64,000 nt of DNA from Eledone cirrhosa (lineage: Eukaryota), in NCBI GenBank assembly GCA_964016885.1, contig OZ024741.1, positions 115,010,001-115,074,000 of the forward strand. Direction: 5' to 3'. The stretch's first letter is position 1. The number at the start of each line of letters is the position of its first letter. Both the position numbers and the translations under genes were made by a program. Positions 266 through 2,202 of the stretch are shown here, piece by piece. The notes under the pieces are model-generated. The model worked only from the letters and a program-made list of their open reading frames with translations, was not told where the DNA came from and searched no databases.

Positions 266-553
266 TTATATATACATTTATATATATATATATAACTATA
301 TATGTATATATATATATATATATATATATATATATATATATATATATATATATATATATATATGTATATATATATATATTTATATATATATATATATGTA
401 TATATATATATATATATATATATGTATATATATATATATATATATATATGTATATATTTATATATATATATATATATATATATATATATATGTATATATT
501 TATATATATATATATATATATATATATATATATATATATATATATATATATAT
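266..553. repeat. (TA)n microsatellite
   Basis: Direct reading; occasional G interruptions. Confidence 0.97.
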
Positions 554-624
554 AAACAAGGTTTAGTAAATAATGAAAAAGTTTCAAAATAAATTTTAAA
601 AAATTGACTTTACCTACTATAGTA

Positions 625-708
625 ACCTTTACCGATCGGTTTCGAATCCCAAAAATAAAACGGAGACCATACGGCCTTCGTTGCAAAGAGAGATTCTCGT
701 CAGAAGGT
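625..708 (-). ncRNA. Type I hammerhead ribozyme, 53-nt stem II
   Basis: ACCTT-CTGACGA-GAATCTC...GGGATTC-GAAA-CCGATCGG-TA-AAGGT. Confidence 0.88.
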
Positions 709-1107
709 TCTTTTCATTCAAAGAATATAAAATTCCTGAATTTAAATCACAAACTAGCGCTATCAAAGACTGTTCCTGGGATGAGAGTGGATGATGTAGA
801 CCAGATTTATCAAGGGCCGTAGTAAAGATAGAGGCAAAAGGAGGTAGGTCAAACTAGCCACCGCTGTTGTCAGCAGCAGTCGGAATGACCCGGTTTGTTC
901 TCAACGTTTGTGGAGGTAGTAGTAATATGAAATACGTCCCTTCACGCACAAGGCGCCAAGGTACGCATGTATTGTCCAACCAAGTGCCAGTGTGGTTCAA
1001 TGGCGGGTTAATAAATTAACGAGCCAGAACAAATATAAACAAGGTTTAGTAAATAATGAAAAAGTTTCAAAATAAATTAAAAAAAATTGACTTTACCTAC
1101 TATAGTT

Positions 1108-1191
1108 ACCTTTACCGATCGATTTCGAATCCCAAAAATAAAACGGAGACCATACGGCCTTCGTTGCAAAGAGAGATTCTCGTCAGAAGGT
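1108..1191 (-). ncRNA. Type I hammerhead ribozyme, second tandem copy
   Basis: Same motif 483 bp away; stem III reads TCGATCGG (G-U pair). Confidence 0.85.
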
Positions 1192-1934
1192 TCTTTTCAT
1201 TCAAAGAATATAAAATTCCTGAATTTAAATCACAAACTAGCGCTATCAAAGACTGTTCCTGGGATGAGAGTGGATGATGTAGAACAGGTTTATCAAGGGC
1301 CGTAGTAAAGATAGAGGCAAAAGGAGGTAGGTCAAACTAACCACCGCTGTTGTCAGCAGCAGTCGGAATGACCCGGTTTGTTCTCAACGTTTGTGGAGGT
1401 AGTAGTAATATGAAATACGTCCCTTCACGCACAAGGCGCCAAGGTACGCATGTATTGTCCAACCAAGTGCCAGTGTGGTTCAATGGCGGGTTAATAAATT
1501 AATATTTTTGGGATTCGAAACCGATCGGTAAAGGTAACTATAGTAGGTAAAGTCAATTTTTTAAAATTTATTTTGAAACTTTTTCATTATTTACTAAACT
1601 TTGTTTATATTTGTTCTGGCTCGTTAATTTATTAACCCGCCATTGAACCACACTGGCACTTGGTTGGACAATACATGCGTACCTTGGCGCCTTGTGCGTG
1701 AAGGGACGTATTCCATATTACTACTACCTCCACAAACGTTGAGAACAAACCGGGTCATTCCGACTGCTGCTGACAACAGCGGTGGCTAGTTTGACCTACC
1801 TCCTATGGCCTCTATCTTTACTATGGCCCTTGATAAATCTGTTCTACATCATCCACTCTCATCCCAGGAACAGTCTTTGATAGCGCTAGTTTGTGATTTA
1901 AATTCAGGAATTTTATATTCTTTGAATGAAAAGA

Positions 1935-2018
1935 ACCTTCTGACGAGAATCTCTCTTTGCAACGAAGGCCGTATGGTCTCCGTTTTATTTTTGGGATTCG
2001 AAACCGATCGGTAAAGGT
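1935..2018 (+). ncRNA. Type I hammerhead ribozyme, inverted copy
   Basis: ACCTT CTGACGA ... GAAA CCGATCGG TA AAGGT on the plus strand. A 3'-half-only copy lies at 1503-1535. Confidence 0.88.
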
Positions 2019-2202
2019 AACTATAGTAGGTAAAGTCAATTTTTTAAAATTTATTTTGAAACTTTTTCATTATTTACTAAACCTTGTTTATATTTGTTCT
2101 AGCTCGTTAATTTATTAACCCGCCATTGAACCACACTGGCACTTGGTTGGACAATACATGCGTACCTTGGCGCCTTGTGCGTGAAGGGACGTATTTCATA
2201 TT

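Follow-up and report, generated by a model that had tools for sequence, protein, structure and literature searches.

The mobility of animal retrozymes is assumed to depend on Penelope-like elements (PLEs) and to pass through circular RNA. In the literature consulted, the partnership with PLEs is backed by co-occurrence and by a phylogeny of pseudo-LTRs (pLTRs), and the circle as a template has only been proposed. That retrozymes descend from PLEs as non-autonomous elements is the thesis of a preprint (Li, Clavereau and Pollet 2026, bioRxiv 10.64898/2026.07.22.740005). Among PLEs, those of the Hydra clade insert in (TA)n and have hammerheads near their 3' ends, and for one of them, described from Octopus bimaculoides, four copies share a single end site. 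PLE insertions may carry a "tail" on one end only, and non-autonomous multicopy elements arranged head to tail were noted in Chlamys (Craig et al. 2021, PMC8557442). The tail was traced to two internal start sites of reverse transcription (RT) downstream of the hammerhead (Frangieh et al. 2024, PMC11167929). In the same study, a PLE cut and extended both strands in vitro, started at two internal sites and used mainly uncleaved RNA, and hammerhead mutants inserted normally. Among the hammerheads of metazoans and of PLEs, a short palindromic stem III has been described, as has cleavage in dimers (PMC4209133).

We analysed a window of 64,000 nucleotides of the Eledone cirrhosa assembly. Near its beginning lies a 1.65-kb insert built wholly of one 483-bp unit (39.5% GC) and placed between two TA runs, which the tandem-repeat call returned as (TA)n microsatellites at 256-554 and 2198-2611, the left and right halves of the target site. 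We defined phase 1 of the unit as the first base past the predicted GUA cut of its hammerhead, whose sense is minus in the left arm and plus in the right arm. The left arm (550-1502, minus, 953 nt) comprises 1.97 units, runs from phase 94 to phase 80 and ends at a short (first) 3' site. The right arm (1503-2203, plus, 701 nt) comprises 1.45 units, runs from phase 456 to phase 190 and ends at a long (second) 3' site. An earlier reading, made from the sequence only, had described two head-to-tail 483-bp units followed by 1.45 units in the opposite orientation, and this description was borne out both by our arm map and by TRF (550-1502: period 483, 2.0 copies, 98%). It was also right in stating that the copies differ by few substitutions: there are 13 variable columns and 0 indels among the copies of the locus, and every change is private. 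The insert is young; private changes amount to ~0.8% in its copies.

The arms abut at 1502/1503 in a blunt 5'-to-5' (head-to-head) junction of phases 94 and 456, with no overlap, inserted base, microhomology or TA remnant. Because the arms meet 5'-to-5', both outer ends are 3' ends. They merge into the TA runs (550-554 and 2202-2203), and within this overlap the ends first placed at 553 and 2202 are correct, as is the statement that they lie at different phases, 80 and 190. A target-site duplication, which in animal non-LTR retrozymes exceeds 4 bp when there is one, cannot be read, both flanks of the insert being (TA)n. Classical twin priming of the L1 type, which acts on one colinear stretch, is ruled out by the overlap of the two arms in phase.

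The insert is non-coding. Its longest ATG ORF has 69 aa, 550-2203 contains no RT domain, no CxCX5C linker and no C-terminal GIY-YIG, and tblastx of the insert against four PLE regions of the window returned nothing. The earlier statement that PLE coding sequence is lacking thus holds for the insert itself and not for its surroundings, a GIY-YIG fragment (2921-3460) being situated ~700 bp off, within the following TA gap.

The insert contains three type I hammerheads that are complete. Two lie in the left arm on the minus strand, at 1108-1191 (core 1186, predicted cut after 1113) and at 625-708 (core 703, predicted cut after 630); the former has a private C-to-U change in stem III, which still pairs as U-G. 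The third, on the plus strand of the right arm at 1935-2018 (core 1940-1946, predicted cut after 2013), has a stem I of 5 bp, a long stem II and a 3-bp stem III within a 10-nt palindrome. At 1503-1535 (plus) the right arm begins with a 5'-truncated hammerhead, of which only the 3' half is left, with its GUA ending at 1530. The four GUA sites are thus spaced by 483 nt, in agreement with the claim of intact hammerheads exactly 483 nt apart, and a 483-nt monomer is predicted between the two left-arm cuts (630-1112, minus), where both hammerheads are complete. In each complete hammerhead stem I has 5-6 bp, the stem II region is 53 nt long and closed by 7 pairs, and a palindromic loop caps the 3-bp stem III.

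With a type I descriptor of our own making, the window had 7 strict matches, and none of 100 shuffles had any. Rfam reported no hammerhead at gathering score in the whole window, and none at E<=1 in 500-6200, where the only matches were to hairpins and AT repeats far below gathering score; our guess is that the long stem II may be responsible for this miss. A 25-nt hammerhead pattern gave 0 matches in metagenome contigs. For the 1935-2018 hammerhead, the predicted active fold (-21.8 kcal/mol) lies 2.1 kcal/mol above the best fold, in which the core is blocked (-23.9 kcal/mol). Fold prediction also indicated that the stem III palindrome is able to pair between two copies.

The window is rich in PLEs. 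A broken Hydra-clade PLE lies at 32270-34318 (minus), its RT and endonuclease (EN) pieces split by stops. Both this element and 55301-56263 carry the CxCX5C linker and match the Hydra-clade rows of the alignment in PMC8557442 by eye; 32270-34318 further has a DKT motif and an RT core resembling, again by eye, that of Hydra-1_Obim. The GIY-YIG fragment 2921-3460 shares 40% identity with the endonuclease part of 32270-34318. It belongs to 2612-4385, a 5'-truncated Hydra-type PLE made of this fragment and a 3' region, preceded by an inverted copy of the 3' end; further copies of the ends of 2612-4385 are found at 57865-58184 and 37904-38133. Another broken Hydra-clade PLE, 53929-57203, has an EN-coding arm and an inverted 3' copy, with a 21-bp minisatellite (56249-56414) at the junction. 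Broken ORF pieces at 49250-50258 (RT C-terminus, zinc-finger linker, GIY-YIG) resemble by eye the Neptune-clade PLE rows of PMC8557442. In a protein search the EN fragment had one homolog, of 318 aa, and the RT fragment had none; the latter grouped with HTH_animal clusters (Atlas). Pfam recognised one of nine ORFs, a LINE-type RT at 14825-15334. This RVT_1 match falls within a broken LINE on the minus strand (13537-16465), which we take to be RTE-like. The window also contains a 2.1-kb direct duplication (25703-27729 and 30093-32177, 96% identity) and a dispersed, SINE-like repeat of ~190 bp whose copies are 80-94% alike (10792-10954, 12760-12950, 27048-27238, 31496-31686, 37394-37580, 41687-41876 and 61514-61694).

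The window contains four further tandem units that carry hammerhead cores and do not code, their periods being about 668, 659, 464 and 448 bp. The 668-bp unit (4788-5876, head-to-head) and the 659-bp unit (35918-36967, a 1.6-unit tandem) are related (75%) and have a long stem II; the hammerhead near 5407-5471 failed our descriptor. The ~464-bp unit (51931-52547) and the ~448-bp unit (57273-57861) are also tandem, the first with a 59-nt inverted arm. A head-to-head element at 9030-9552 has a hammerhead core at 9203 on its minus arm, and its arms are ~77% alike overall. Another hammerhead family, at 39451-39837 and 41293-41573, is arranged 3'-to-3' around a TA run (39674-39708), with cores at 39491 (plus) and 39805 (minus). 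Three more elements, 44532-45208, 42219-42579 and 52568-52809, are head-to-head and TA-flanked.

The outer ends of the 483-bp insert lie 80 and 190 nt past the cut, so that the right end carries a "tail" of 110 nt (2094-2203, plus; phases 81-190) that is missing from the left end. One short end and one end longer by 68-133 nt were seen in 9 of the 10 inverted elements compared in the window, the tenth (41352) being the one that gave no short/long call. By the TA-run measure, the tail is 113 nt in the 483-bp element, 107 nt in 4788-5876, 125 nt in 9030-9552, 94 nt in 2612-4385, 132 nt in 53929-57203, 68 nt in 51931-52547, and 111, 80 and 133 nt in 44532-45208, 42219-42579 and 52568-52809. No hammerhead was found in these last three (elements 44632, 42296 and 52691), whose orientation was taken from their TA flanks. 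Two of the nine one-tailed elements, 2612-4385 and 53929-57203, code for endonuclease. In the EN family, ends were reused by separate insertions, the long end at 2612 recurring near 57884 and the short end near 4385 recurring near 38066. Similarly, the 659-bp unit ends at 35918, that is, at the site where the short arm of the 668-bp unit ends. In public DNA runs of two organisms, 6 of the 20 loose ends listed out of 213 run into TA, two at phases ~78-80, two at 174-188 and two, in diverged copies, at ~153-155.

The unequal end phases are therefore a Penelope footprint and have no bearing on a circle, since the 3' ends recur at few sites and pair as one short and one long. Circular permutation of the ends is likewise ruled out by the fixed short and long 3' ends of 9/10 inverted elements. 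The sequence-only reading had held that the ends fit reverse transcription of a circular or multimeric RNA. What stands of this is that the template was uncut at the cut site, both arms crossing it twice; the differing phases do not serve as a pointer to a circle. It had also named fixed end phases with attachment to a coding PLE as the outcome that would speak against it. The 3' ends do cluster, with the third phase in diverged copies, and attachment to a PLE was not seen among the loose ends listed.

Where the tail begins, immediately 3' of the short end, a hairpin is predicted (1613-1648 and 2096-2131 on the plus strand, and also on the minus strand), with z = -3.3 and 0/200 shuffles as stable. 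Within ~12 nt after the short end, a pyrimidine-TCT motif is present in 6/9 elements, both coding ones among them, and absent from 3/9. Its background is 9% per 12 nt, and the resulting p of 4e-5 is inflated, as the motif was picked after seeing the data. It opens a predicted hairpin in five of the six elements that bear it. At the same place, a hairpin with altered but still paired closing bases is predicted in the 668-bp and 659-bp families and in the coding neighbour 2612-4385. Among six short tail-start hairpins folded, only that of the 483-bp unit had a z below -2 against shuffles, the others ranging from -0.2 to -1.9, and the nine tails, once aligned, are only 49% identical. Outside the insert, blastn of the unit against the window gave as its best match 42 nt (76%, E = 4e-4) in the non-coding 659-bp family. 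Exact searches with five motifs of 10-14 nt, of which three were taken from the unit and two from its neighbours, gave no relevant match in the part of the PMC8557442 supplement that was searched. As a lead, we put forward the predicted hairpin at the tail start as a candidate signal that may recruit the PLE protein.

Relatives of the unit were found in public DNA runs. The family is multi-copy: 775 contigs of run X1 and 1901 reads of run X9 were placed on the stretch, mostly 85-99% alike. A contig of run X4 is 513 nt (483 + 30) long, with 7 differences over 511 aligned letters. If the word length was 31, its length fits a closed loop of the unit, so that the unit appears to join itself and not an ORF. 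No coding sequence was recognisable by eye at the 20 loose ends listed out of 213, over at most 30 letters each. Head-to-head joints at four other phase pairs were found in organism A, one of them in two runs. A break lies within 8 nt of the cut in 3/4 of these joints, which makes 4/8 breaks (p about 1e-4), with short sides and with a palindrome beside the cut. No sequence piece listed spans the locus, and none of the runs listed contains half of the unit's words. Piles of read begins and ends in X9 were discarded as biology: this is a RAD library, and 5 of the 7 rows listed are within 3 nt of a TTAA site.

We propose that the 483-bp repeat is a non-autonomous, non-coding retrozyme mobilised in trans by a PLE, with an uncut linear multimer as template, a statement to which, taken as a whole, we give about an even chance. 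A tandem source locus would be transcribed into multimeric RNA. A Hydra-clade PLE protein would then bind near the hairpin past the hammerhead, and its GIY-YIG endonuclease would nick both (TA)n strands, as the target, the neighbours and the data of PMC11167929 suggest. Each nicked strand would prime RT at one of two fixed internal sites, ~80 and ~190 nt 3' of the cut, which would account for the observed pair of ends, one arm without and the other with the 110-nt tail. Given such starts, both cDNAs read through two hammerhead sites, and the template was uncut there; tentatively, it would most likely be an uncut or partly cut linear multimer. The cDNAs would stop at arbitrary places and be joined bluntly head to head, as the junction displays. 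The ~0.8% private changes would have arisen later or through RT errors. The steps of PLE binding and nicking, of priming at two fixed RT starts and of blunt joining appear, taken together, highly probable. The PLE partner itself is one that we infer, since apart from the short hairpin motif the unit has in the window no homology to a coding PLE; all coding PLEs seen there are broken. Against the model stand also the length of the tail (110 nt against a published 30-40 bp), the third end phase of diverged copies, and the origin of the in vitro data from a lizard element of the Poseidon clade.

Each arm crosses the cut twice, hence a template that was uncut there and either circular or multimeric; a cut linear monomer would give a cDNA of only 80 or 190 nt. 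With the PLE machinery and the two start sites unchanged, the template might have been a cut-and-ligated 483-nt circle, copied by rolling-circle RT in 2 and 1.5 turns, which we consider possible but somewhat unlikely. Rolling-circle RT was proposed in PMC7229834 and PMC4209133, and comparable units of coral, mussel and axolotl form abundant circles (PMC7229834). When circularised, the unit folds better than 60/60 shuffles (z = -3.0), and its best fold blocks the catalytic core. The breaks next to the cut in organism A are also a hint of cleavage in vivo; yet they suit linear cut ends better than circles, or may be an alignment artefact of the adjacent palindrome, and 0/8 arm 5' ends of the window elements lie at a cut. 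Moreover, crossing the cut is not specific to a circle, because any hammerhead PLE with start sites just past the cut would do so, and it is common to coding Hydra PLEs, whose hammerheads are near their 3' end. The preference for uncleaved RNA in vitro (PMC11167929) also argues against a circle, as does the lack of cleavage in vitro of 8/9 predicted Xenopus dimers (bioRxiv 10.64898/2026.07.22.740005). As to the substitutions, their private nature and the equal divergence within arms (10/688) and between arms (22/1376; Fisher p = 0.85) are what one identical template, for instance a circle, would give. On the other hand, the left arm is discordant at phase 308, where T is common to the second turn of each arm (L0 and R0), and C to the left arm's third turn (L-1) and the X4 contig (chance about 0.08). 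This pattern would be expected if both cDNAs had copied the same non-identical units, as a linear heterogeneous template predicts, but gene conversion from one inverted arm to the other might account for it too. The linear multimer is thus slightly favoured over the circle, chiefly on one informative site. A back-junction read or a divergent RT-PCR product would not be diagnostic of a circle, since head-to-tail genomic copies already contain the junction. A bolder version seems to us rather unlikely: long (448-668 bp) retrozymes would parasitise Hydra-clade PLE proteins through a conserved hairpin at the first RT start site, the hammerhead would make 483-nt circles in the germline, and a PLE dimer would copy one circle through rolling-circle RT from two fixed sites, so producing the head-to-head arms with one tail. 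If true, circle-templated retrotransposition would have left its footprint in an animal genome, and 110 nt would be a minimal cis-element by which PLEs mobilise in trans.

Other readings put the origin of the locus elsewhere. The tail, the inversion, the (TA)n target and the hammerhead are all features of pLTRs, and Xenopus retrozymes derive from pLTRs (bioRxiv 10.64898/2026.07.22.740005), so that the unit might be the pLTR of a PLE that is autonomous but has its ORF elsewhere, the locus being its truncated and locally multiplied end. We find this quite doubtful: three times a unit is succeeded by the next in head-to-tail order, free of coding bases and without ORF or tblastx match, the X4 contig appears self-closing, and the loose ends listed are not recognisably coding. 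An error of assembly, or a fold-back or unequal crossover within a satellite-like array, at the DNA level and with no RNA step, can be envisaged, as assembly is difficult where near-identical inverted repeats stand between long TA runs (PMC8557442) and the locus lacks a spanning piece among those listed. However, the mirror arms differ at 8/483 and 7/390 sites and so do not stem from an in silico duplication of one sequence, the same architecture is found in other families of the window, independent runs contain head-to-head joints at other phases, one of them in two runs, and both ends fall at recurrent family positions; we regard such an origin as very unlikely. Finally, three changes at phases 275-294 occur only in the right arm, which has one copy of those phases, as might be seen if two independent insertions had come to abut by chance. 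The junction bears no TA remnant, and the pairing of one short and one long end in 9/10 elements points to single events, which makes such a coincidence extremely improbable. Mobilisation by a PLE from two fixed start sites thus remains our preferred reading.

By its sequence definition, the 483-bp repeat qualifies as an animal non-LTR retrozyme, and the earlier proposal of a retrozyme candidate was well founded: type I hammerheads in tandem 483 nt apart, no coding capacity, 39.5% GC and many copies alongside PLEs. Like the metazoan non-LTR retrozymes of Cervera and de la Pena (2020, PMC7229834), it is non-coding, arranged head to tail with a type I hammerhead in each unit and a GC content under 50%, has a stem III that is short and palindromic, as suits the cleavage of dimers, and co-exists with PLEs. 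It differs by its size, 483 nt against about 170-400 reported, and by its stem II of 53 nt, and cleavage and circles were demonstrated for those retrozymes, whereas here cleavage is a prediction and circles a possibility. The main text of PMC7229834 makes no mention of "inverted", "tail" or "microsatellite", and the head-to-head inversion and the (TA)n target are absent from it. The unit also fits the definition of an "active retrozyme" in bioRxiv 10.64898/2026.07.22.740005, two consecutive units with complete hammerheads, and its size is inside the 51-972 bp given there. That preprint argues from co-occurrence and from the phylogeny of pLTRs, with data mostly on vertebrates, whereas our evidence is an insertion footprint, with no pLTR homolog found; its main text, supplements apart, does not contain "tail", "initiation" or "mollus". 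Outside most subscription papers and Repbase/Dfam, the family is undescribed in the retrozyme and hammerhead Penelope literature on octopus that was surveyed.

The footprint itself is closest to that of PLEs. As for PAc, the Poseidon element of Anolis (PMC11167929), there would be two RT starts downstream of the cut, at a stem-loop, the target is AT-rich and both strands would be extended. PAc, however, is an autonomous lizard element of the Poseidon and not the Hydra clade, with start sites closer together and not homologous to the target, whereas in the present insert a few TA bases at either end are shared with the target. With Hydra-clade PLEs such as Hydra-1_Obim (PMC8557442), the insert shares the (TA)n target, the hammerhead near a fixed 3' end, the tandem with an inverted 5'-truncated copy and the tail on one end only; unlike them, it has no RT/EN ORF, and its tail is 110 nt long against 30-40 bp. 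What is new here is modest, namely a Penelope insertion footprint and a start-site hairpin common to coding neighbours, on a retrozyme. The locus and its neighbours thereby place a PLE footprint on non-coding hammerhead units beside coding Hydra-type elements, and offer a compact substrate for asking whether the PLE reverse transcriptase copies circles or uncut linear RNA.
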